This document shows positions 2,702 to 30,744 of a stretch of 36,981 nt of DNA, one piece after another (the first letter of the stretch is position 1; every line of letters begins with the position of its first letter). Position numbers and translations under genes: made by a program. The stretch is from assembly GCA_010015585.1 (NCBI GenBank), contig ML975198.1. The stretch is one strand, 5' to 3'. The stretch is from Eremomyces bilateralis CBS 781.70. Its lineage: Eukaryota. Under the pieces are notes generated by a model. That model made no database searches. It worked only from the letters and a program-made list of their open reading frames with translations, and was not told where the DNA came from.

Positions 2702-5700
2702 GACTCTAATATAAGGCGAAGTCCTCGCAGCGGAAAAGGGAAGAATAGGCGTTATTACTACGGAGAGCGGATATTATAGATGGACTACTCCGACTCGATA
2801 TCCGAAGGTAAGCCCCATTCGTGGGTTTTATTTCTATCTTCTAAGGGCTGGTGACGTAGGTTAGCACAAGACTGAATACTCTACTGGAACAAAACATACT
2901 AGTATCGCCATCATATCGTTATCGGGATCTAGATCAGCCGTCGCTCCTCCCGTCTCGTAAGGTGGCACTATTATTCGGTCTTCATCTCTCGTGACCTTGG
3001 CGTTAAACAGTTCTAGCTTCTTTGTCGCCACCCTTTCGAGCCCGATAGTGTGTATGTCCGGCGCTTGATGTGTGGCTTGCCTACCGCCCCGGTAAAATTT
3101 AATCGAATCGCACGCCAACTCAAATGCCAGGATATGAATATCATCCACTGGAGAGGGCACGGAATGCTTGGAGCTTTCCTTCCGCGCAAATGCTTTCTCT
3201 ATCGCCTTGCGTAGATAAACAGTATATTCTGCCGTCAATGAGGTAGTCTTGAACAGAGCATCTAATCCGAAAGTCGACGTTCGACGGGCCCAAAGCTCTC
3301 TTTTTAGCTCCAGGTTTAGATATTCAAGGCTACGGTCGACTTCTTGCCAGGTATCCCGACAGCCATGCGGATTAACGAGGCTATTCGAGAGTGTTACGCG
3401 CCGAAGCTCCTTATCACAAGCTTTGGTGCTAGTGAGCCGCTTTAGATAGAGCATTTCGAATGCGTAGTTTGATTGTCCAGTCCCTTCGAAGTAAAAGCAA
3501 CAGACACCAATAACTCGATCGATGAGTCCTACATCTCCGTTCTTGATGCCGTGCTTCAAGGTCTTGTATACAACCATTTGTTGAAGGTATCGAGCATGAC
3601 TAAGGAACTCCTCATCAACTGTGTTGTTGGCATGCTTCTCCTTAGACGGTCGCCAGGCTTGCGGCTCAAATGCGGATCTGCGAACATCCTCCACTAGGTC
3701 CATAAAGCCTCTGGTATTCATGTTCCGAATTGCCTTATCAACCTCATCTTGATCCGAGATATCGATGCCGCACTGCTCGAGGCGAGTATAGAGTAGTCCA
3801 ACAACCCGAGCGTCGAAACTGTGAAGCACCAGCTCTTCCAGAACCTGAAAAGCTGCACGGGCCGCTGGAATATTCTTCCGTCCCCAGAAGTTCATGTTAT
3901 GATAGAGAGTTGAAGCATCCTGTTGCTCCATGTTTCCATTATGTGTCTTTTGCATGAGCCATAGAAAATTCATGCGCAGGTGAAAGAGAGCAGCGACTCC
4001 TACTAGCCAGTCTTTTCTATCATACGCCATAGACGCGTCGACTTGCTCAGCCTGCATAGATCGGATGAGTGAAGAGGTTTTTTGATCGCCAAACGCCAAG
4101 AACAGACGGTTGTCGAATTCCTTATTATCTAGTTGGAATTGGTGCTTGTAGATACTCTCTATAACCTCGTAGGAGCCATCTAGAGTACCTTCGTTGAAGA
4201 GAATCGGACCGAGCGTCTTACTATCTGTCTTTCGAAGCTCGAGTAGCTCGATAGCTGGCATAGCGGGGAATGGGATGTCGGAATTAGAGAAGATAGATTT
4301 AACCGATTGTGGATATGCTGTTCGAATCGCCTCCGCTATGAAGTAGCTGTCAATCTTGGAGGCAGTATCGTCGTATATGGCGGCGCTGGGAGAGTAGAAA
4401 AGGTCCTCTATTGAAAGTGGAACCTCGCGGTATAGCATCGACTTCCTTAATCCACCTGGGGGAATGTCGGCGCCTCTGAAAACTTTCCCCGTTATTACAG
4501 AGCGCATTTCTACATGGTTTGAAATAAGCTAGTGCTTAACACATTCTCGATAGTCGAAATTATTGTAGACAACACAAGCGTCCAGCAGCTGGCCGTATCG
4601 ACGGACCGTTCCCTACGAACGGTTAGTCGAAATCCATTCCGAGAGACGGTGGCGATGCCTTCGCTTGCTCTGCCACAGTTTTAAGGTGCTTGTGAACCCC
4701 TTTATACCCTTCACAAAGCCCAAAATGGTGTAATAGATCGAGGACACGCCGTTTAACGCCATTGGAGTGTAGAAAGGCACCAAATACGCGGGGAAACTTG
4801 TTACTTCCTTCCGAGGCTCGAGAATAACAGAGAATCGACGTAATTATCGCAGTCCTGTGCTTGAATTTGGAAGGATCTCGTGGCGGTCGATCTTTTCTCT
4901 CTATCTTCGGCGCCATGAGACCGTCGAGCAGTCCACATAGAAGAGGAGCATGGGTATGGACTTGCTCATACATCCGGCCGAACCGCATGTCGTCGAGTAT
5001 GCACTCGTAGTCCTCTGGTTTCTGGCCATCTTCAGACTGCCCCTCCCGCCTAATACCGCCTTGTAGAGACTTCTCTTGTTCGCGGTCGACCTGGTAGGCA
5101 CTAAACATACCTCCGGCCTCTTCCAGCGCTTTCATTTCTTTTCTCAGTGCCTTCACGGTGACAATTCCTCCCACACTAGACGCAGGATGTTGTCGTATTG
5201 CCTCTAGTACCTCTGGTTGAGTGTATATCGCGTCTGCAAGGCGTTTGGCACGCGTCGCAGGTCGATCTCCGTAGCCGTCATCACCTTGAGTTGTTACGTA
5301 CACTCGAATAAATTCGGCAAGCGTCAAGTGGTGTGTTTTAGACATGTATTTGCATATGTCGCTCACTCGCTTTTCTGACGTCCATACTCGTGATCTTGCG
5401 CGTTTACGATGGACACCGGCCGTCAAAGCAGCAGTTCGTGGCTGTTCTCTGCTCTCAAGAGGCGTTGGGTTCAGTCGTACGCTGCGCCGAGAGGTTCGAT
5501 CTGACATCGTCAAAATTTCACTGGGCTGTTAAGAAATGATAGAGGATTCGATTGAACGTGTCGATTTTACTGTACGATAGCTCCTTGTGGAGAAAAACGA
5601 CGTTGAAGTGGTTAACTTGCTCTCATACAAACGATCTCGACTTAGGCCAAAAATCAATGACAGGATCCTCAGGCTATTTGGTAGAGAACCTTACCGATTA

Positions 5701-8806: not shown

Positions 8807-10884
8807 AAAATAGGCCTGTGGTGCATAAAGGCAACCTTTCTGCCCCAAATCATCACGAGCGTAGCTAGTACGTGATCTCTGCCTTCCTAGAGTATACCTA
8901 AGGGAAGCTTCTGTTTGAGTAGAATCACCATCCCTCCCCCGTAGGACTACTAATTAATCAAATATTCTTAATCATGAGGAGGAAACACGGAAATAGCCGA
9001 ATCGCTCAAAAATAGCATCTTCGCGACCAGTGCATACTTCCTAATTAGGAAATCAAATGATCCCCTTTTCTCATCAGATTGTCTAATCGTACAGTGATGT
9101 TTTGATCCTGATCTCGCGCCACATAAACCACCTTGCTTATAGCACTCACTCTCCGCCTTCCGGAAATCCTCCGCATCTATGTCACCCAGCTATAAACGCC
9201 GTCCCTACCGTGCCGCCTGTAAAGGAAGAGGAATTAAGGGTGACGATCCGACTGCCCGTCCGAGATCCTACACTATGTTAACACAGCGCGATTGATTCAA
9301 ATGATGTAAACAAACCTCTGCCGTAATATGCTGGTTCTCCCTCCTGCGCGCATCATCCTTCCGGAACTTCATCGTCTCCCTCTCCGTGCGAGGGTTCAAA
9401 TCCTGTAAATCGAATGGAGCCTCAAACATGATCCCTCGAAGGCCTTTCACACGGGAGACTGCCACGTAGGTCAGGCCAGACGCGAACTCCCGCTCCGAAA
9501 TATCCAGCACAGCCCGTGCTAAAGTCATTCCCTGCGACTTATGCGTTGTGATGGCGTAGGCGATGGTTAACGGGAACTGTGAACGCGAGTAGGAAGTGTT
9601 CTCGATATAGAACTCGCGGCGTGATGGGAGGATTGGGACCAAAGCAAAGCCGTCTACGACCAACGTCGGTCCATCATACCGATCGAATTGAACGAGGAGT
9701 ACGGAAGGAGGATCCTTATGGATATCAGCACCAGCCTGCCAGCTAATATCACGCACTGTTTCCATCGCACCGTTCACCAGGCCTCGTTCGGTCCAGAGAT
9801 TCTCTGTCAATATAACACGGGTTCCTAACGCCATCGGAATCTCAGAATAGAGGTTTCCTGCATCATCAGTCGGAGCCTTTCCTGCCTTCGCCCCTCCTTC
9901 GTGAATTGCTCGACACATTATGACAGGAGAACGGAGATCGCGTAAGCGACGATAGTTAAACACGGCGATAGGCACTTTCTTACCGAAGATACGGAGAGCG
10001 TCCCGGAACGATGCCACCTCCTCAGACGGAAGCATGGCCTGTACTTGTGTACTAAGCAATGTCCAGTCGTCACAAGTTGCGGAGCCTATCCGCAGGTGAT
10101 CGAGAGCCTGGCGGAACTGAATCGACTCAACGTCATTGCCCTGCTGCCGAACAGCTTCATCAAGCTTGATCATTCGCTCGAATTGGTAGTAGATATTACG
10201 CCCATGCCGTTCATCTAGATTTAGATCCTTCTTCTGGTTATAAAGAGCAGTTGCCAAGACTGGAGGAAGCTGGAAGAAGTTGCCACAGAGGAGAATACAG
10301 AGACCGCCGAAAGACTTGTGTATGTAAGGAAAGATCTCGCGGCAACGACGGTCAATATAAGAGAGCTGGCGAAGGCCGATCATAGATTTTTCGTCGATGA
10401 TCAGATACCGTATAACTCGGAACTTGGCCTGAGCGGTTTGAAGAGCAGCCGGCAGGAGGGGATCGAGAAACTTGACATCCCGAACAGGAAAACGAAAAAG
10501 AGTATGCGGTGTTTTACCGTATCGACACCGCCAGCAGGTCTTAAGACGACGCCGTCCGCGATGCTTTGAAGTAAACTCCTCATCCAGCCTCCAATTCCTG
10601 CAATGCTTGCAATAATGAAGAGTGACCCGGTGCAAATGGAAGACGGGGCGGTGGCGGCATGCCACCTCCAGGGTCTCCAGAAGGCATAATTAGTATGCCA
10701 TGAAAAGCAATTGTTGGCGAGAGAAAGAGGGGCAGATAGGAGGAGGAGGCGACCAATCAGACAACGCGCAGCAAAAAGACCTTGAATCACGTGATTCAAG
10801 GTCCACTGACCAATCAGACAGCGTTAAAAAAAATGTCACTCTTCCAATTAAGTAACTCGCTACGGAGTACGCTCGTGATGATCA
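8807..10884 (-). mobile_element. Internally deleted Helitron2/Helentron-like rolling-circle element
   Basis: 15-bp asymmetric inverted repeat ATCATCACGAGCGTA (8849-8863) / TACGCTCGTGATGAT (10868-10882). A hairpin at 8823-8843 lies just downstream (element orientation) of the 3' repeat, followed by TATTTT. Encloses a zinc-finger plus partial Pif1 ORF. Exact ends are uncertain by a few bp. Confidence 0.65.
9268..10665 (-). pseudogene. Truncated Pif1-family helicase fused to an N-terminal C2C2 zinc-finger-like segment (Rep/Hel remnant)
   Basis: Pif1 motifs LIIDEKSMI, FGG..ILLCG(N)FFQLPPV, VRQ, GLVNG, QFPL.IAYAITTHKSQGMTL and GLTYVAVSRV are present. There is no Walker A and no Rep domain; CKHC..CWRC joins directly to GKTPHTLF near 10520. 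Confidence 0.8.
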
Positions 10885-11305: not shown

Positions 11306-13364
11306 ATGACTCTAGGCAGGTAACCCGAACAAAATTACCCTGGCTTCCAGCACTAACTTTGCAAAGGGAAGCATTTCATCAATGACGTTGGAGCTGTCGT
11401 CGAGCGGGGTTTGCGCAGTCACTTAACAAATGACGGCAGGCTCAGATTAATAGAATCAGAGAAAGGTGAGAAGTAAACGATCCGTTTGAAAATGTTACGT
11501 TGCTTACATTTCGGGGGTAGTTTTGTATTTGCAGCCAAGCTCAAGTAATGAAAAAGTCCATCTAATCTCCGGCGGAGGGTCGGGCCATGAGCCAGCCCAC
11601 GCGGGATATGTGGGTGATGGCATGCTCGATATATGCGTTGCTGGAAACGTCTTCGCATCACCCTCCGCACCCCAGATCTTGGCGGGATTGAGATCCTGTC
11701 CATCAAAGAAGGGGTCCGTATTGACGGCATCAGAATGATAGTTCACGACTGACGAATCCTGAACACAGGACGCTCATGATAGTCAAAAACTACACAGGTG
11801 ACAAACTCAACTTTGGTCTCGCAGCCGAGAAGGCGAAAGCCGGTGGACAAAAAGTCAATGTGATTGTGGTGGGTGATGATGTCGCCGTCGAAGGAAATAC
11901 ACTCGTGGGGAGACGCGGCTTAGCAGGCGTGACATTTGTGCACAAAATCGCCGGTGCAGCAGCAGCTGAGGGGTAAGTACGGGGGTCTTCACGATTGGTG
12001 TTCACTAAACATGTGAAACACACTGGTACTAAATCTCCTTGCAGGAAGTCCCTGGAAGAGGTGACGAAGATCGCACAGCGGGTTGCGGATAGTCTTGTCA
12101 CTGCTGCAGTCAGTCTTGATCGATGCAGCGTCCCCTCAAGAATAGAGCAGTCTTCACTGCCACAGACTGAATTGGAGTTTGGCATGGGTAAGTGACATAT
12201 TTGGGATTGCCCATCGAATTCCACTGATTCATGGGGTACAGGCATTCATAATGAGCCAGGGGTCAAGAGGACTGCGATTCCACAACTACAGGAGACAATA
12301 AATGCACTTCTCGATATGCTCTTGAAGAAGAAAAACTTCTGGACCCCTGAATCTGGTTCAAGGGTCTCTGCGATGGTCAACAACCTTGGAGGGTTGAGCG
12401 TACTTGAACTGAGCGTAGTATCTGAAGAGGCGATGAAACAGCTCGCTGAACGTGGCTTGGTCATCCGACGCATCTTCACTGGGCCGTTTGTCACTTCTTT
12501 GGATGCACCCGGTTTCTCTATCACTCTGCTCGGTGTAGATGACGAGTTAGAGAGGCTTCTCGATGCCCCAACGTCCGCTCCGGCGTGGCCAAAGAAGAGC
12601 GGTGTTCCCTCCGATCTAAAAACTCAGGTAGTAGAGTGTCATACGCTTGGCCACGACGAAATCTCACAAAATGGTGGTCCAGAATCCGTTTCAGGTACGT
12701 AGTCCCCCAAATGTGTTGAGATATTCGGCTGACCTTTGCAGTATCATCTACTGTCGCTACAGAAATCATCGAGTCCATCGCGACATCAGTCAAGAGAGAT
12801 GAACCTACAATCACCCGCTACGATACCATTGCCGGTGATGGTGATTGCGGTGAAACCCTTCTTGCAGGGGCGGACTCCCTGAAGTCCAGCATTCTACCGC
12901 TGCGCGATGAAGGCGTGTCCCTCTCTGTGCTATTCCAGAAGATTGCCGCGGCAGTAGAGACGAGCATGGGCGGTACCTCAGGGGCAATTTACGCGATCTT
13001 CCTCAACGCAGTGTCGAACGCCGTTGCCTCCTCTTCAACCTCGCCCGCGGCTACTCTTCCGCAAGCATTGAGGGCCGGCCTAGATGAGCTGTGCAAGTAC
13101 ACCGCCGCACGGAAAGGCCATCGGACATTGATGGATGCGCTTATTCCGTTCGTGGACACGCTCGAACAGACGACTGATTTCAATCACGCATGCGATGCGG
13201 CTCAATCTGGTGCTGAGTCGACGAAGAATCTGGACGCATTACTCGGGAGGGCATCGTACGTTGATAAAGGCGTCTTTGAGAAGGAAGGCGGTATCCCTGA
13301 CCCTGGAGCACTGGGGGTTGTGAGTGTGTTGAGGGGTATCCAGAAGGGGTTGAAGAATGGTTAG
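11306..13364 (+). CDS. DAK1: Dihydroxyacetone kinase family (Dak1 + Dak2 domains), 7 exons
   Basis: [121 protein letters not shown]. Introns start at 11316 (GC donor), 11466, 11714, 11973, 12188 and 12695. The symbol is family-level only. Confidence 0.93.
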
Positions 13365-14755: not shown

Positions 14756-17176
14756 ATGGCGCCTTCGGCAGTTCCTAGGGAGATCATCCAATCCCCCTCA
14801 GACTACCCCGGTGTCGAATCGAAAGCCGTTGCAACATCACATCAAAATGGAAGCCCTCAGATAGACTCCTCGGAAAGGATAGACAAATCCTTGGGGGAGT
14901 TCAGATGTCTTATCGCAGACTTGACCGAGCAGTTCAAGGGCGGTCACCCAGGGTAAGCCGGACTTCTGCCACATCCCGCTGGAAGCCTTTTGAAGTTGAC
15001 AGTTCCAGGGGTGCTATGGGAATGGCTGCCATAGGTGTTTCGTTATGGAAATATGTGATGAAGTATTCACCCGAGAATCCGAACTTCTTCAACCGGGACC
15101 GATTCGTTTTATCAAATGGTCCGTCATTCCCTTGGATGCAGGAGGAGATCTCTGACACAATGCAGGCCACACCTGCCTTTTCCAATACAGCTTTCTCCAC
15201 CTTACCGGCTACAAGAACATGACCCTCGACCAATTGAAATCATACCACTCTTCACGAATCGATTCCATATGCCCGGGCCACCCTGAGATTGAACACGATG
15301 GCATCGAAGTTACTACTGGACCACTTGGCCAAGGCGTTGCAAACGCCGTCGGCCTCGCCATGGCGACGAAGCATCTCGGTGCCACATACAACAAACCCGG
15401 ATTCCCGCTCGTATCGAATATGACGTATTGCATGATCGGCGATGCATGTCTTCAGGAGGGTGTCGCCCTCGAATCTATCCAGCTCGCTGGCCATTGGAAA
15501 TTGAACAACCTGGTCATCATGTATGACAATAATCAGGTCACATGCGATGGCTCAGTCGATCTCTGCAACACTGAAGACGTTAATGCGAAGATGCGAGCTT
15601 GCGGATGGGATGTCATTGATATTGAGGATGGCTGCTTCGATGTGGAAGGGATCATTGCTGCCCTGGTCAAGGCCAAGGCTAACAAAGAAAGGCCAACTTT
15701 CATCAACGTCCGAACGGTTATCGGTATCGGCAGCAAAGTTCAGGGAGATGCCAAAGCCCACGGTGCTGCATTCGGTGTCGAGGGCGTCGCAGACATTAAG
15801 AGAAAGTTCGGAATGGACCCAGAGCAGCACTTTTCCATCTCGGAAGATACATACGAATTCTTCCGGGATGGCAAGTCCAAGGGCAGGCAGATCGAGACTG
15901 AATGGAACGACTTGGTCCAGAAGTACGCAACTGAATATCCAAACGAGCACTCGGAGTTCCAGAAGCGGGTGAGAGGCGAGATGACGGAGGACTGGAGCAA
16001 ACTTATCCCAGCCAAATCAGAGTTCCCGACTACTCCTACTCCTTCAAGAAAATCGGCTGGTTTAGTTTGCAATCCTATTGCAGCCGAGATGCAAAGCATG
16101 ATGGTTGGGACTGCCGATCTGTCACCATCTGTGAACATGATCTGGAAAGGCAAGGTCGACTTTCAAAATGTATGTTGGTATCGAATTTTCCTTTTTTTCT
16201 GAGGCCTCACTAACCGATAACAGCCTGACTTGCGAACAACATGCGGAATCAATGGCGATTATTCCGGCCGATACATCCATTGGGGCATCCGAGAGCATGC
16301 AATGGCATCGATATCGAATGGGTTAGCAGCCTTCAACAAAGGCACGATCCTACCAGTCACATCCACCTTCTTCATGTTCTACATCGTAAGTGCAATATCC
16401 TACCTACAATGACCTGTAGAGACAGCACTGACTCTGACTAGTACGCTGCTCCCGGTGTCCGCATGGGCGCTCTCCAACACCTCCAATGCATCCACATCGC
16501 TACCCACGACAGCATCGGCACTGGTGAAGATGGCCCAACCCACCAACCCATCGCCCTACCCGCCCTCTACCGCGCCATGCCCAATCTCCTCTACATCCGC
16601 CCCTGCGATTCGGAAGAAGTCGCCGGTGCCTTCATCTCCGCGCTGCAAGCGAAGAACACTCCCTCAATCATCTCCCTATCCCGCCAAAACCTCGAGCAGT
16701 ACCCCGCCTACTCATCACGAGACGGCGTCCAGAAGGGTGCCTACGTCTTCATTGAGGAGGAAAATGCCGACGTCACCTTGATCGGCGTAGGCGCTGAGAT
16801 GATTTTCGCAGTCAGGACGCGCGACGTGCTACGTGAGAAGTTTGGCATCCGCGCACGGGTCGTCTCATTCCCCTGCCAGCGAATCTTCGATGCCCAACCG
16901 ATCGAATACAAGCGCGATGTACTACGGTACCGGAGCAACGCGCCGAGAGTGGCGATCGAGGCGTACGCTGTTAATGGCTGGGAGAGGTACGCGGATGCTG
17001 GATACTCGATGAGCACGTTCGGGCATTCGTTGCCGGGTGCAGCTGCGTATAAGTACTTTGGGTTTGACGAGAACAAGATCGCGCCGAAGGTGGCCGAGCT
17101 TGTTGAAGAGGTGAAGAAAGACGGAATAGAGGCACTCAGGGGGGAGTTCCGTGATTTGAATGAAGGGCCTCGCTGA
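14756..17176 (+). CDS. Transketolase of the dihydroxyacetone synthase (formaldehyde transketolase)-like clade, 5 exons
   Basis: FRCLIADLTEQFKGGHPG-GAMGMAAIG, NRDRFVLSNGHTCLFQY, GHPE, TTGPLGQG, GDACLQEG, TADL, GIREHAM, FFMFY.YAAP.VRMGAL, THDSIGTGEDGPTHQP. These variants resemble DAS-type enzymes more than housekeeping TKL1 (which typically reads NSGHPGAP.G). Introns 14953-15008, 15119-15165, 16170-16223, 16386-16441. Confidence 0.9.
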
Positions 17177-23700: not shown

Positions 23701-25596
23701 TCGCCATTGAGAGAGCTGAGTGACATTTCTGCCTTGCAACCCCCAAAGCGAAATTTGTCTGGAAATCATCGCTGTGGAACGAGATGACTGAGGCTGACAG
23801 AAGGAGTTTGGACAAAGGGGTGTGGACAGTGTGAGAGCTTGGCATGGGAGCTCCTTTTCCGATGGAAGATTCTATGGTCAACGTTGCAGGTATGAATGAC
23901 GGTGGCTGGCCGAATCAGTCGTTTCCCCAGCTAGACACCCCAGATATGCCAATGGATTTTCGAGCGAATAGCAGATGTCGAAGGTTCCTTCCACGGCCAC
24001 TGATTTTTGGAGTTAGATATACATACCATGTTAATCGCAATCAAGGTCTTCATTACGCTTCGAAGTCCCACGATATCGTAAGAAGCAAGTCGTCCAAAGC
24101 CGCAGGGAGCTAGCCTACTACAACTCTACACCAGTTTTCCATCGAGCTTAAACTGATTTACAAACCTTGCACGACCTAGGAGAATCCACCAATCCTCAAT
24201 GTCTCTCGAGTTCACGATGCAGATAAAGGTCCTGGCGACGAAGCCCTCAGATTGGAACCTCGCTGGAATGCTCTACAAAGTCAACTGGACGTTATGAAAA
24301 CGATCTGGAACGAACTCCACGAGGGGGAAGCTCATATAAAACTCGGACCGTCTCAGCGGCAGGAATCTCCATCATCAGCAGCCTCATGGGTCGAAAGTTT
24401 GCATGAACAAGGCCTGGGGCTTCAAAGGATGGGATATGCATCTCTCAGGCGTAGTCTGGAACAGCTGCCGTGAGAAACGCAGTAGTGGCAAGCGATGTCC
24501 ACCAATTATGTTATGTCATCATCCGGATGAGCACCACCATAGCCGATGCCTTATTGTCTTCCTGCCCGAGGACGCTACCAGCGCAGGAAATCACCCCACA
24601 GCCATAAAGTCGATCGATAGGTGCCATCCGCCATCCATCAGTGGTAAGGCGAGACCACGACAGCGAGGATCGCATAGGAGTGAATATCAATTAAGAAGCA
24701 GCAGAGGTACTTCCTCCTCCCTATGATAACGAAACTAGAATCCTGATTTCTGGTGCTCGGGCCACTGAAAAGGGGTCGCATTGGGAGATTGATCGAATTT
24801 GTCTCTCTCCCAGCTGGTGAATCCGTTATGGTCCTTGGGTATTAAAGGAACTTCGACAGGTGTATTACCAAGGTGACCACAATGGTCGATTTGGTAGAAT
24901 ATGTGGCTACCTCCCGGGGAGTAACGAGTCGTCTCAAGGTGATGCTGCGCAGAATTAGGGGGTTCGACTCCCCGTCCTTACCATAGTGTTTTGGGCTTTT
25001 TGGGGATTTTTATTGGCAATTCTTTCCATTACGTCTCTTCGGGCATTTGGCCTCGCACATAGTCTTTGAGGAGATCCAGTCTCTGCAATAAGGTTGGATA
25101 TGCGAAATATGAGTACAGCCAACAGCTAAGTCGAATTGTGCAACCCGTTGCCATGGATATGAGTTGCTCATTCCTTCCACAACGAGTTTTTGAGCGTCAT
25201 TTATCACGAATGCAAGTAGATAAGAATCCCATTTGTTAATAATCAATACGGCAGCTCTACCTTATAAAAAGTATAAGTCTGCACGTTGCAAAAAGGAGGG
25301 GCTATGTTGGTGGCGCATGCTATGGGCGCTTAAACTTCATATTAATCTACTACCCAACACAGGTACGGCATCGTTCGGTCATGCTACGGGAAACCAAGAG
25401 CAAGGCTATCTTCTAGGAATTCTTAACTTGTCCTTCGTCATTCTTGTCGTCCATATTTACCATATTTTACAACTCTGTTAATCCACCCTATCTGATACCA
25501 AAGGGTCCCATATCCCGAATTCCCATTAGAAGCAAGGACGAGGCTTGCGAGGAAAGACAAAGGCTATGAGTCCTGCCCTTTCTCACTGCGCCTCCA

Positions 25597-27553
25597 ATGA
25601 ACGGAGCAACCACACTCCCTGACGGCGTGCCAGGCGCCGTATTGGAGTCGAAGATCGAAGTCCAGTTCATAGAAGGATACACGAAGCATAGCACTTGGCA
25701 CAACTTTCGTCAACTCCAGACTCAAGGAACATGGGTGCGCCATTCGAAGCTTGGTAGAGGAGCGTTCGGTAGTGTATCACTTGAGACCCGCCGCTCGGGG
25801 CTGACAGGGAACATTGGTGTGCAACCAGTGCTTAGAGCTGTGAAGAAGATTAAGAAAGTGGACCACAGGGGAGATGGATTGAACTACTGGAAGGAGTTGG
25901 AAGCGATAGCGAAATTCTCGCAAGACCAGGTAAGATTACGGATAATGTCTTGTGCATTTGAGCCGACTTACCCATAGTATCAACCCTTCTTCGTTCGATC
26001 ATACGGATGGTACGAAAACAATGACTCGGTCTTCATAGCCATGGAATACTTCCCGTATGGAGATTTGCGGAAGTACATGCAGACGAACTGGGGATTTCCA
26101 GAATTGGAGGTAAGACTTATCATCAAGCAGATGTTGTCCGGCATCCACTTCTTACATGACGAGGGATTCGTCCACCGAGATCTGAAGCCCGAGGTAAGTG
26201 TCGACAGGTGGGTGTCAAAATCTTCAGTATATGTAAATAGTACGACTAACGTACCCAAGAATCTCCTGGTTGAACACATGGGTCCACGATGGAGGATAAA
26301 GATCGGTGATTTCGGAATCTGCAAAAACACCCAAGCAACAGTTCTTCAAACGAAGATAGGGACATTGTTCTATATGGCTCCGGAGGTATCACTGAGAATG
26401 TGGACGAAGCCTGATACTGAACCACTCGACTCGTATTCCTCTGCGGTCGACATATGGGCAGTCGGAATAATCGCCGTGGAACTTCTTCTTAAGCGCTACG
26501 CGTTCCTATCTAGTCCCATGGTAGGAAACATGCAGCTCAATCTCACTGGGGAAGGCGAAGAGCCACTTTCAGAACCGTGTCGAGACTTTGCGGGCAGGTT
26601 ATTGGCGCTCGATCCCAGTTCGAGACTAACTGCCAGAGCCGCTGGAGATCACGAATGGATCATTACAAGTAGTTTACCCCTGGAGGAGGACTACAGGTGA
26701 CGTCTCGAATCTAGGCGTGCCTGACCTTGTTAACCCCGAACAGATTCTCGATCGCGGAGACAGAACCGTCTGTCACAGATTTTACCGTGTCATCCGCCTC
26801 ATGCAGATGGTCAGACCTAGGATCCAACAGCAAAGCCTCAGGGTCATCGACCGGGACATTACCCACCACATCCCAGAATAGCACGATTGATCCTAACCTC
26901 CTAGCCCCCAACTTCAGAAGCCTCTCATTGCAAACGGTAGGGTTGATCCCCCGATGTAGTTGTTTGCGCTCGCTCACCACCATAACACCAGGGCAAATTC
27001 TTCATCATCAAGTCCAAAAACGACGAGAACGTCGAAAAGAGCATCGAGCGTGGCGTATGGACGTCGTATAATCGGAATAACATCAAGCTTAACGAAGCAT
27101 ACTTGAGCGCGACGGGGCCAGTCCTACTGTTCTTTTCAGTGGTCGGAAGGTAAGAGTCGGGTTTATCCCATACAATAAAAACCTCAACATCGCTAAAATT
27201 TCCGTACAGCAAAAAGTTTTGCGGCGTCGCGAGGATGACGAGTGAGGTCGATTGGGATAACACTGATAACCACTGGGTTGGTGGGGTATGGGAAGGGTAT
27301 GTATTGTCCTGTCGAATGAACCAACATTGACTGATTGGACGTATACTAATTGTCGTCATCAATGCCTAGGCGCTTCACGCTCGAGTGGCTTTCGATGAAG
27401 GAGGTCTGGTTTCGTCGGGTCAACCGTGTTACCGTGAATGCGAACAGTAACGACCTAGTATTGGCAGCAAGGGATGGGACTGAGGTATCGGCAGACGCAG
27501 CATATCAGATGCTTCGAGCATTTTCGGAGAACGGCACGAACCAGCAGCGGTAG
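25597..27553 (+). CDS. Ser/Thr protein kinase fused to a C-terminal YTH domain, ~535 aa; exons 25597-25929, 25978-26193, 26260-26696, 26744-26936, 26992-27149, 27210-27296, 27370-27553
   Basis: Kinase motifs GRGAFGSV, AVKKI, ELEAIAKFS, HRDLKPEN, DFG, GTLFYMAPE, VDIWAVG. An S/T linker is followed by KFFIIKSKNDENVEKSIERGVWTS..NN.KLNEAY...GPVLLFFSVVGSKKFCGVARMTSEVDW.....HW...VWEGRFTLEW...RDGTEV. Six GT-AG introns of 47-73 nt sum to 1608 coding nt with no internal stop. Confidence 0.85.
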
Positions 27554-27657: not shown

Positions 27658-30600
27658 TTATAACACCCAGCTCACTCGCTTTCCCTTCTGCACCACCTTC
27701 ACATCGTCAAACAACACCATCTCTCCCCTCCCTTCCCCCCTCCTCACTCGATCAACTCCCAAATGCTCCTTCCCATCCCTACCCAAATACACTCCAAACC
27801 CATACATCGCGGGCCCACCTACTCCCGCCACCCCCTTCTCCACATCCCCTCTCGGTTCCGGCACCGCCAAACTCTTCCCACTCTTCACCCTCACCTCCTC
27901 CCCAACTCTACCCCCACCGCCCACCAAGCTCGCCACGCTCCCCAAGAACCCGCTCCGCTGCACCACCACCCTCTGCCTGCCCAGCATCCGCGTGACTAGG
28001 TCCGCCTTGCTAGCGCACCGCGCGAACGCCGCGTCGCTAACCATCGGCGACATGTACAGCCAGGAGATAGTCTCAGCGAGGGAGCTGGAGCGGTGGGGGA
28101 GGGAGAGGGATTTATGGCGGGGCGTGAGGAGCAGGATGAAGTAGGGGAGTGCGTGGAGGGAGAGGAAGGCGCAGAGCGCGTAGAGCGCGGGTGGGTGTGC
28201 GGAGATGAGGGTGGTGCCGGAGAGGGCTGATTGGCGAGGGAGGAGGGAATGCGGAGGGATGGAGGTGGAGGTGAAGGCGGGGGCAGGGATGGAGGCGCGG
28301 GAGGAAGGGGTGGAGGGATGGAATTGGGCCCAGAGGAGACCGGAGGCGAGGACGGGGATGGCGAGGTTAAGGAGCGTTATGAAGCTGGTGTAGGCGGGGA
28401 GGACGTGCCCGTTTGCGGCGGCGGCGAGAGTGGCGGAGAGGGGGAAGCGGTGGACGTAGTCGACGAGGAGAGATCGGTCGGCCGTGGCGCCGTTGGAGGA
28501 GGAGAGGGAGGCGTAGGGTTGCAAGGCGCGGATGTGGAGGTCGATGGCCTGGAAGGTGAGGAAGAGGATGAGGCCGAGGAGGGCAGGGATGAAAGCGTAG
28601 AGGAAGTTAGGTGCGGAGAAGCCGGCATCGTCGGCGAGGGCGGGAAGCATGGGGAGGAAACCTTTCATCGTGGCGTTGTTGACAAAGCTAACAACCAAGA
28701 AGGCGATGAGGAGGACGAAGGCAATGACGAACCAAGCCACGGCGAACGTGTCGCGCAGGAACCAAGGGAGATAGCGCCGTCGGATGTCGAGAGAGCGAAT
28801 ATCGGAGCGGATCGAATATCCAGCTTCGATGTCTCGATGGCTTCCAGCCGGTATGTCCGACGGAGTTGATTTCTCCAGGATTCTGCCTCTTTCAACCGAA
28901 TACCTGCGAGTAGGTCCTCCTTCCTCTCCAATTCCATAGAAAACATCACCTGGGCGCTGGCTTGTGTACCAGTAACCCAGGCGATCAGTCCGGTTCCACA
29001 ACCGCTTGTGGAATTCTTGGGTCGTTGCAAATGTTTCGCTGTCCGCATAATCGGACATGATATTCGCTCTCTCGAGCATTGCAGCTATATCTGCAAGGGA
29101 TCGTGGATCCCACCGCAGACCGGTAGCTGCGCGTGCAGGCCAAAGGCCAGCCGCAATCAAAACAAGAGCGAGAAGTTGTAAAACATATAGTCCAACAACC
29201 ACCCAAACCACAATCTGGGCGGCAACCCATCGCCAAACGCCCCCGTCCACCGGCCCAAAGAATTTGACATTATAGCTCGATGCGAGCAGAGGGATCGTAA
29301 AAATCTGGAGCCACAGCAAAATCATACAGACGCCAAGCACTGGCTGTCCAGCGCGAAATTGCCGGAACGCTCGACTAGGTATCAGGAATTGTTTGGCCGC
29401 TAGATCGAGGAAGACGGCTTTTGTACGGGCCTTCCTCGATGGGCTGGACAATGCAATAAAGGGAGAAATTCTAGTCAATGCGATGTCGATCTGCATGACC
29501 CAAATGAGGAGAAGCATGCCAACGAGGGTGGGCAAATATCGAAAGAGGAAGTATCGGGAATCGCCGAAGTCTTGGTAGTCGAGGATGCCAGGGTTCTTGC
29601 GAGTGCTGAAAGAATATACAGCAGAGAGGATGAGGACGAATATAAGACCAACTAAAATGATCATGTACAAGATTAGCCAGATGGGGCGGAGGATAGAGGG
29701 GATAAATCGAAGAGGTGGATGTTCTGCTGAGTCTCGTGTGGGTTGGAATGGCGCAAAGATGTCTGTGAGTCGTCTCGCCGGAGAACTTTCTGGCCGGGAG
29801 GAGCCGTGCGGGCCATGATATGGAGAGGGAGGGTCGGGATATATTGGTTCGGTCTTTGGCGGTAAATGATGGCTCGGTCCCAGTATTTCCGACGATGCGC
29901 GTGTGTGTCCGAATGCCGCAGCATGGCCATCTCCGAGCGGTGGAGTGTGGAAGGACTCTTCACTGGGCGTGAAAGCCCCTTCTGGCACATCCACTGCAGT
30001 CGCACGTCCAGGTGTGCCAGATGATTGGCCTGGTAAACCCGGATACTGCCGTGATGCCCTGCTGACTTCTTCATCGCGGGTAATCTGGTCAATCGCAAAT
30101 CGAATGAACGGACTTGTGTCGACTCCGGGAGTTGTTGCAGGCGAGTACGGGTCCATTGCCTTCTCTTTATTACCACCCGCCAACGCAGGGTGGGTAGGTA
30201 GCCCAGCCTCAAGCGCCTTCAGGTCGTCCGCACCACCTCTTTCTTGGGTCTGAGAGCCGTCCGAGTGGCTTGACAAAGCCGGCTTCCGTCTCACCTCTTT
30301 TGTATTCGCTCGAGTGTGCGGTGATCCAAAGGAGGTGACAATATTGTGGACTTGTCCGTCGCCAGTAGTCAGAAGCCTCACCGTGTGCGGGTCTTGCTGT
30401 GCTGCGGCCGCTCGTTTCTTCTCATCGCTGGTTTCTGGAGTGATGTACTGCGATGGCGGAGTATTGTATATGATGGTGCGTTGCGGGGTGGCATCGGGAT
30501 CGAAGGCGCCGTCCCGGTCGCCGGTTGAGGAAGACGTGTCGGCGAGGGAGAAATAATCTTCAGAGGCGGCAATGCTATGGTTGGAGATTTGATGGAGCAG

Positions 30601-30744
30601 TTGCGGTTGACTGACTACAAATGACGAGGAAAATCAGCGAAATTCGGACAAGGATGCGGCGCTGGAGAATATGCAGGATCCGATATGATGCGGTCACTCA
30701 CCATTAGTGTCTTTCAGAGATACAAGCGGCTTCGGCTCTGTCAT
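27658..30744 (-). CDS. Multipass membrane protein, DUF3433-like, ~999 aa; exons 30744-30702, 30614-27658
   Basis: The long ORF extends upstream of the called GTG start to an intron (30701-30615, GTGAGT..TAG). Two repeats of a TM block (P.ILRP..L / YLPWFLR; FRYLPT / FIPALLG; R..PF / RALQPY) and TGLRWDPRSLAD, as I recall for DUF3433 proteins. Confidence 0.75.

Follow-up and report, generated by a model that had tools for sequence, protein, structure and literature searches.

Can a single protein read a methyl mark on RNA and answer it with phosphorylation? The question is raised by a gene of the filamentous ascomycete Eremomyces bilateralis CBS 781.70, found on contig ML975198.1 (assembly GCA_010015585.1) in a stretch of DNA of 36,981 nucleotides (nt), analysed as a whole and called here the window. 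An initial annotation of the window, made from its letters alone, had proposed that one gene encodes in frame a protein kinase with all its catalytic motifs intact, a Ser/Thr linker of ~65 amino acids (aa) and a complete YTH domain, the fold that reads N6-methyladenosine (m6A). The proposal was borne out: at positions 25597-27553 (+), the same as in that annotation, lies one seven-exon gene, whose exons are interrupted by six introns, all GT..AG and 47-73 nt long, and splice into an open reading frame (ORF) of 1608 nt with a single terminal stop, coding for a kinase, a linker and a complete YTH domain in a protein of 535 aa. Exon-by-exon translations match Pfam in collinear order, both Pkinase and YTH score above their cut-offs in the spliced protein (a check that the annotation itself had suggested), and the product is identical to the public NCBI protein P0001, 'kinase-like protein [Eremomyces bilateralis CBS 781.70]'. 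The absence of the fusion from the ORF track, pointed out at that time, is no discovery, since the public annotation of P0001 holds the same 535-aa model and already bears PF00069 and PF04146.

By its motifs, the N-terminal part of the protein (residues ~15-325) is a CAMK-like Ser/Thr kinase that we predict to be catalytically competent. The Pfam profile of Pkinase (PF00069) matches residues 48-317 of the whole protein with an E-value of 2.5e-50 and 171.8 bits (cut-off 31.7), covering positions 3-263 of its 263, and the GxGxxG, AVK, HRDLKPEN, DFG, APE and DIW motifs are all found, with the catalytic residues recognisable as the GRGAFG loop, the lysine of AVK83, H177-R-D179-LKPE-N184, D200-FG and APE225. 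The closest kinases of solved structure are Rad53, the calcium-dependent protein kinases (CDPKs) of apicomplexans and plants, CaMK1 and Chk2, which align to residues ~45-325 with E-values from 3.9e-33 to 1e-22. Relatives of P0001 are in fact named 'calcium/calmodulin-dependent protein kinase' in the databases. Pfam found in P0001 neither an FHA domain, an EF-hand, a calmodulin-binding region or an SQ/TQ cluster domain, nor a NACHT or NB-ARC domain, nor a sensor of the double-stranded RNA-binding motif (dsRBM) or HisRS-like kinds.

At the other end, residues ~380-530 make up what is, as judged by alignment, a YTHDF-type YTH domain with a complete three-tryptophan m6A cage. The YTH profile (PF04146) matches residues 395-526 with an E-value of 9.4e-40 and 135.9 bits (cut-off 22.1) over positions 2-134 of 135. 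An Atlas model of residues 390-532 superposes on YTH clusters with template-modelling (TM) scores of 0.83-0.91, predicted models standing on both sides of the comparison; all 30 nearest Atlas feature clusters are YTH, and a kinase domain occurs in none of the listed Atlas rows that match this part. The nearest solved YTH domains are those of YTHDF1, YTHDF2 and YTHDF3 (~90 bits, E-value ~1e-24, aligned over 133-134 residues), followed at 62-66 bits by the solved domains of YTHDC1, Zygosaccharomyces rouxii and Saccharomyces cerevisiae MRB1/Pho92, YTHDC2 and plant CPSF30. In the alignments, the three cage tryptophans of YTHDF1 and YTHDF2 are matched by W416, W468 and W473; in the numbering of YTHDF2 we take them to be W432, W486 and W491. 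Between the two domains, the linker that had been described as rich in Ser and Thr (residues 329-393, 65 aa) does hold 24 such residues among its 65 (37%). In the AlphaFold 2 (AF2) model two folded domains are separated by an unstructured linker: the predicted local distance difference test score (pLDDT) is below 50 over residues 320-375, modelled as disordered, and 70-89 over most of residues 380-528.

The kinase matches bring in a reading different from the one developed below, namely that a Rad53/Chk2-like kinase acts in genome integrity and that its YTH domain recognises either single-stranded DNA carrying N6-methyladenine (6mA) or m6A RNA at sites of DNA damage. Rad53 (E-value 3.9e-33) and Chk2 are indeed among the top solved matches, although the lead of Rad53 over CDPK and CaMK1 is modest (118 versus 92-98 bits), the FHA and SQ/TQ cluster domains are missing by Pfam and YTH domains of the YTHDF type, to which this one belongs, have RNA as their characterised ligands. 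That archaeal YTH-like domains bind m6A DNA, as described in the available part of a survey of the EVE, DCD and YTH domains (PMC7641849), gives the idea a precedent, and we nevertheless hold it to be improbable.

Is the fusion transcribed as such? The transcript source is a single public run, X1, from one study, in the form of contigs, which lose rarer variants and of which the records listed are partial (7 further records lie outside the listing). Its label 'RNA?' is a guess, and it is the six GT..AG joints of its contigs in the kinase-YTH gene that lead us to treat X1 as transcript-derived. The gene is transcribed as spliced RNA joining the kinase and YTH exons: a single X1 contig of 4730 nt runs from exon 2 to past the stop codon, covering 25976-26205, 26258-26692, 26740-26935, 26991-27147, 27208-27295 and 27369 onward. 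Both linking introns put forward in the initial annotation (26697-26743 and 26937-26991) are spliced in this contig as modelled, and so are the introns within the YTH domain (27150-27209 and 27297-27369), while intron 1 (25930-25977; joint 25929/25978) is removed in a separate X1 contig. These joints bear on whether a neighbouring kinase gene and a small YTH gene could have been merged by the gene model. The kinase ORF would stop at the TGA 26698-26700, after 329 aa, if intron 3 were retained, and the donors of the two linking introns (GTGACG and GTAGGG) are weaker than the others, both of which would suit a merger. On the other hand, one contig splices both introns, the architecture was independently predicted in more than 20 genomes, and no in-frame Met exists between residues 274 and 455, so that a separate YTH protein started at an AUG would begin only after the first third of the domain and lose W416. 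Retention of either linking intron brings an early stop. An artefact of this kind is extremely improbable, and a separate YTH gene was rejected on the grounds of the spliced linking introns and the missing AUG.

The next question is whether the architecture is a singularity of Eremomyces. Word-index searches for homologues, with exon 3 of the kinase or the YTH region as query, returned P0001 itself only, a result that reflects a limit of sensitivity and not uniqueness, because exhaustive and profile searches did find relatives. When 1.84 billion representatives were searched exhaustively with phmmer, there were 414,552 kinase matches, whose top five after P0001 itself (P0002-P0006; 272-403 bits, 41-44% identity) are all kinase-YTH proteins; below them come kinase-only matches at 220 bits or less. 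P0002, P0004 and P0006 align across both domains in one stretch, P0003 does so in two, and the truncated P0005 aligns only to query residue 475. By Pfam, the Pkinase and YTH pair is present in six of the 149 nearest non-self representatives, that is, P0002-P0006 and the fragment P0060, the fused proteins coming from Nemania abortiva, Orbilia javanica, Podospora australis, Emericellopsis atlantica, Dactylella cylindrospora and, for one protein, a metagenome. Moreover, a family profile was run against 5.8 billion proteins; 8000 candidates were scored, and among the 120 proteins listed 20 carry PF00069 and PF04146 (P0001 plus 19), all of them from Pezizomycotina. The 19 comprise 11 from Xylaria/Xylariales, two from Nemania, two from Emericellopsis and four from single species (Dactylonectria macrodidyma, Orbilia ellipsospora, Hyaloscypha variabilis and Halenospora varia). 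The search for the same pair in other fungi, which the initial annotation had recommended, thus yielded at least 22 other named species of Sordariomycetes, Leotiomycetes and Orbiliomycetes with 38-43% identity to P0001, Eremomyces being a dothideomycete carrier of the fusion.

The active residues of both domains are kept throughout. In an alignment of 25 family sequences, in which truncated rows were left out of the counts, the HRD Asp, the catalytic Asn, DFG and APE are each conserved in 25 of 25 and the VAIK Lys in 23 of 23, whereas the cage tryptophans score 25/25 (W1), 24/24 (W2) and 24/24 (W3). The layout is collinear as well: the kinase is followed by the linker, which contains a pre-YTH motif (LDSxLLxPxFRxLxLE), and then by YTH. 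For a quick maximum-likelihood tree, 88 kinase domains were taken from the first 90 representatives whose match was sufficiently long and from the fused ones, multi-kinase or short rows being included only if their best match reached at least 230 residues. All eight fused rows fall within one 10-row clade (support of 92 in the SH-like approximate likelihood ratio test, SH-aLRT), with P0001 as sister to the rest of the clade and on its longest branch (0.74). The two non-fused rows of the clade are P0011 and P0017. The intron-blind model of P0011 ends directly after the conserved pre-YTH motif, and P0011 is probably a truncated member of the family; P0017 (692 aa) has a different C-terminus of ~360 aa, in which Pfam recognises no domain and BLAST finds no likeness to the linker or YTH, and which may be a domain replacement. 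Since the intron-blind models of P0011 and P0060 lose homology precisely where the linker meets YTH (columns ~470-490 of alignment A1), the position of the intron at the 26937-26991 boundary seems to be conserved across the family. By these comparisons, the kinase-YTH proteins form a small conserved family of Pezizomycotina, of which P0001 is a divergent member.

What would such a protein do? With the architecture observed, the mechanism that we favour, by a narrow preference, is that of a CAMK-like kinase tethered to, or activated by, m6A RNA through a YTHDF-type cage, in a conserved fungal family. The YTH domain would dock the protein on m6A-marked RNA; docking would raise the local concentration of the kinase, and the flexible linker would let it reach proteins on the same ribonucleoprotein (RNP). 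The kinase could then phosphorylate other proteins of these RNPs as well as itself, the Ser/Thr linker being a likely target. Molecules that cluster on RNA with several methyl marks might undergo trans-autophosphorylation and so become active, as PKR does on double-stranded RNA (dsRNA). In this manner the reader might answer methylation of an RNA with phosphorylation. That the ligand is present is plausible, because a single m6A writer is reported across Pezizomycotina in a survey of fungal m6A factors (PMC10826363). A more daring version, which we regard as tentative and rather doubtful, would make the family 'reader-kinases' whose activity is recruited or switched on by m6A RNA and which possibly monitor foreign or aberrant RNA, by analogy with what PKR does for dsRNA.

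The kinase family tree adds another element. As far as alignments tell, the kinase-YTH family arose inside a paralogue-rich kinase clade with exchangeable C-terminal binding modules, a feature that the initial annotation had mentioned for fungal kinases of this type and that was recognised among the 149 nearest representatives. Counted with Pfam at E-value cut-offs that differ (1e-5, 1e-8 and 1e-3), partner domains of these representatives are TPR in 25, WD40 or another beta-propeller in 12 (one of them weak), ankyrin in 5, RhoGAP in 3, SH3 in 2 and YTH in 6, with WW, VPS13_C, C2H2 fingers, a ricin-B lectin, ENTH and DUF7613 in one each; there are also several multi-kinase and many kinase-only proteins. 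The paralogues with TPR, WD40 or ankyrin share with P0001 the N-terminal extension and the kinase (35-48% identity), and likewise place the kinase first and the binding module last, but their C-terminal module is a protein-binding repeat and that of the kinase-YTH family is a modified-nucleotide reader. No characterisation of these paralogues was found within the literature searched. Many of them, as kinases joined to TPR, WD40 or ankyrin, recall the layout of the NOD-like receptors (NLRs) without the nucleotide-binding oligomerization domain (NOD) module. Membership among fungal NLRs was rejected for want of a NACHT or NB-ARC domain, none of which appears in the domain tables of the 149 representatives (at most 25 families per protein).

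This company of repeats invites the idea of a surveillance kinase for nonself or aberrant RNA, a fungal analogue of PKR that would sense viral or transposon RNA, methylated or unusually methylated, and trigger defence or growth arrest. The pairing of the kinase with TPR, WD40 and ankyrin (25, 12 and 5 of the 149) speaks for it, and these repeat classes are described as sensor domains of fungal NLRs in a paper on NLRs of Sordariales (PMC12258605); the patchy distribution of the fusion over five classes would also fit, and so would the small scaffold that it shares with PIF1-like helicase and DUF6589 genes. Nevertheless, neither P0001 nor the scanned paralogues carry NACHT or NB-ARC, only a single cluster per species is present among those seen, with no expansion or diversification of the immune type, and the likeness to PKR is an analogy only. 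We judge surveillance of this kind quite unlikely.

Going back to an m6A-tethered or m6A-activated kinase, several observations weigh against it, the first group of them at the transcript level. That the source X1 is RNA is a guess, and it amounts to a single run of a single study, and contigs cannot prove one transcript from cap to poly(A), the one of 4730 nt extending into the convergent neighbour gene. Moreover, this contig does not remove intron 2 as modelled: it skips 26208-26259 (52 nt, donor GTGGGT) in place of 26194-26259 (66 nt, GTAAGT), which adds 14 nt, shifts the frame straight after HRDLKPE and leads to the TAA at 26297 and a 200-aa product. The productive joint 26193/26260 is absent among the X1 records listed, and the full 535-aa protein is in this strain only predicted, because the sole contig seen at intron 2 is out of frame. 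The 66-nt intron is required for the conserved HRDLKPEN, and as homologues all read HRDLKPxN without an insert, the conserved protein is made when this intron is the one removed.

These data raise the possibility that the E. bilateralis gene is mostly unproductively spliced or decaying, so that the fusion protein is rare or absent here while its orthologues may be functional. Besides the stop after 200 aa given by the only contig seen over intron 2, that view can call on a 105-nt X1 contig (25900-26004) that keeps intron 1, with a depth of 143 versus 209 for the spliced joint, and which stems from either unspliced RNA or DNA carry-over in X1; on an upstream ORF overlapping the start codon; and on the divergence of P0001, with the longest branch of its family (0.74) and unique YTH substitutions. 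Against decay, however, the frame of 535 codons is open and every catalytic and cage residue is intact; GTAAGT is nearer to the usual donor consensus; contigs lose rarer variants, with X1 records listed only in part; and regulated unproductive splicing, which the donor at +14 nt may represent, is compatible with a functional gene. A gene that mostly fails to make its protein is, in our opinion, unlikely.

The second group of unfavourable observations concerns the protein. Confidence in the AF2 model is modest, with a mean pLDDT of 62 and a predicted TM score (pTM) of 0.47 from an alignment of eight sequences, and m6A specificity of the YTH domain is something that we infer only from the conservation of the cage. 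P0001 differs from its family in the pocket and the RNA contacts at N406 (D in 24 members), K400 (R in 22) and R509 (Y in 18). In terms of YTHDF2, with residue numbers that we assume, N406 aligns with D422, which is D in the other 24 family members, and a Lys aligns with Y418, where most of the family has D. An Asn at the position of D422 is the state of YTHDC1, which still binds m6A. Side by side with these, R509 of P0001 is the same as the state aligned in YTHDF1 and YTHDF2. On such grounds the YTH domain might serve for general localisation to RNA or RNP granules, or regulate the kinase within the same molecule, with no specificity for m6A, in the way of Mmi1, in which a YTH domain need not read the mark, as stated in the accessible part of the fungal survey (PMC10826363). 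The substitutions of P0001 at K400, R509 and the equivalent of Y418 would agree with it, but three cage tryptophans that are invariant in the family are hard to explain without a methyl-adenine ligand, and the equivalent of D422 is an Asp in 24 of the 25 sequences, P0001 having the Asn of the m6A-binding YTHDC1. We therefore give an m6A-independent role little probability.

How does an m6A-guided kinase compare with known systems? YTHDF proteins have a long N-terminal effector region of low complexity and no enzyme domain. P0001 resembles YTHDF1, YTHDF2 and YTHDF3 in the cage tryptophans and in a RD(G/T)xE segment that aligns with them, and this likeness is confined to the YTH domain, its N-terminal 330 residues being a kinase. 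The Pho92/MRB1 proteins of the fungal PHO92/YTH1 clades score lower than YTHDF (62.7 bits for S. cerevisiae, 65.6 for Z. rouxii MRB1), and in Atlas clusters of Ascomycota YTH occurs with an RRM or alone, unlike the kinase-YTH arrangement. YTHDC2 likewise fuses YTH to an enzyme, thus having reader and catalytic effector in one chain, but its enzyme is a DExH RNA helicase acting on RNA and that of P0001 a protein kinase, presumably acting on proteins. PKR (EIF2AK2) and GCN2 link an RNA-binding module flexibly to a Ser/Thr kinase and are activated by RNA-driven clustering. Their likeness to P0001, which is no member of that group, is a functional analogy only: the RNA modules are dsRBM or HisRS-like in place of YTH, PKR has its domains in the opposite order, the kinase family differs, and no eIF2-alpha kinase figures among the 60 best solved matches of P0001 (Rad53, CDPK, CaMK, Chk2, Aurora, ROCK, MELK, STK17A and YTH proteins). 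Rad53, Chk2, CaMK1 and CDPK give the best kinase matches, and P0001 departs from all of them by its place in a Pezizomycotina-specific clade of paralogues with variable C-termini. Finally, the available part of the domain survey describes archaeal McrB-YTH-like restriction proteins in which a methyl-adenine reader is also fused to an effector enzyme, although those are prokaryotic, with a DNA ligand, a GTPase/nuclease effector and a YTH-like domain hardly separable from EVE (PMC7641849).

The features of the gene and of its surroundings in the window are gathered in Table 1. The convergent neighbour of the kinase-YTH gene encodes a DUF3433 protein, and the 3' ends of both genes probably overlap because the 4730-nt contig runs through both. 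Farther away, an ORF with DUF6589 and a partial ORF for a PIF1-like helicase may be transposon-related, and an ORF with a Dak2 (dihydroxyacetone kinase) domain adjoins a transketolase-like gene split over two ORFs, a pairing that recalls the dihydroxyacetone synthase/kinase pathways.

Table 1. Coordinates in the window of the elements of the kinase-YTH gene and of neighbouring ORFs.
Feature	Position	Strand	Content
5' leader	25460..25596	+	transcript contig begins at 25460
Upstream ORF	25566..25622		18 codons, other frame; in the 5' leader, overlaps start codon 25597
Exon 1	25597..25929	+	residues 1-111: N-terminal extension, Gly-rich loop GRGAFG, AVK lysine K83, alpha-C KELEAIAKFS
Exon 2	25978..26193	+	residues 112-183; catalytic loop HRDLKPE at end; Pkinase profile 58-127
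D179 codon in exon 2	26179-26181	+	
Intron 2 (modelled)	26194..26259	+	66 nt, GTAAGT..AG
Exon 3	26260..26696	+	residues 184-329, phase 2; DFG, APE, DIWAVG, C-lobe; Pkinase profile 128-263, E 3.3e-21
Intron 3, first linking intron	26697..26743	+	47 nt, GTGACG..AG
Exon 4	26744..26936	+	residues 329-393; disordered Ser/Thr-rich linker, closing with the conserved pre-YTH motif (IDPNLLAPNFRSLSLQT)
Intron 4, second linking intron	26937..26991	+	55 nt, GTAGGG..AG
Exon 5	26992..27149	+	residues 394-446; YTH beta1/alpha1; YTH profile 2-50 of 135, E 3.8e-15
Codon of cage W416 in exon 5	27058-27060	+	
Exon 6	27210..27296	+	residues 446-475; YTH profile 53-75 of 135
Codon of cage W468 in exon 6	27274-27276	+	
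Codon of cage W473 in exon 6	27289-27291	+	
Exon 7	27370..27553	+	residues 475-535 and stop; C-terminal YTH half including RDGTEV; YTH profile 85-134, E 2.3e-09
Convergent neighbour	27658-30633	-	991-codon frame, DUF3433 (E 2.9e-35); end ~105 nt from the kinase-YTH stop
DUF6589 ORF	2864-4528	-	E 6.5e-66
PIF1-like helicase ORF, partial	9271-10689	-	E 8.1e-12
Dak2 ORF and transketolase-like gene	12720-13361; 15156-17173	+; +	Dak2 domain ORF adjoining a transketolase-like gene split over two ORFs

The initial annotation had also held that no kinase-YTH fusion is characterised. This stands insofar as no paper describing or testing such a protein was found in the full-text literature (subscription papers and ~1.7 million PubMed Central articles lie outside that scope); as a novelty of architecture it does not, since the combination recurs in public databases. 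NCBI and UniRef list such proteins by generic names together with computed matches to both Pfam domains; the architecture is therefore catalogued automatically and yet uncharacterised. In its available part, the survey of EVE, DCD and YTH fusions gives DCD, KH, zinc-finger, eTudor and McrB as partners and no kinase (PMC7641849), and the accessible part of the Sordariales NLR paper makes no mention of YTH (PMC12258605). The survey of fungal m6A factors screened 2,029 fungal YTH entries, discarded those with 'irrelevant protein names' and recognised three YTH clades; the word 'kinase' appears 0 times in its main text as accessible, although the supplements may list kinase-YTH proteins, and this published census of fungal YTH readers thus omits the kinase-YTH architecture in that main text (PMC10826363). 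The further proposals of ligand-gated activation, 6mA DNA binding and foreign nucleic-acid surveillance stay conjectural.

What, then, does the family mean for these fungi? Known YTH readers recruit the machineries of decay, translation, splicing or polyadenylation or, in the case of YTHDC2, use a helicase, and we know of no YTH protein for which m6A-gated kinase signalling has been described. With both active sites kept in more than 20 filamentous ascomycetes, a YTH domain is joined here to a predicted active kinase, unlike in those readers. At ~535 aa, the protein offers a compact two-domain system for asking whether RNA methylation gates a kinase, as well as a natural scaffold for tools of m6A-proximity phosphorylation. 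Its conserved residues suggest that the kinase-YTH family links RNA methylation directly to phosphorylation signalling, which, if true, would be the first case of m6A reading that directly writes a phosphorylation signal.

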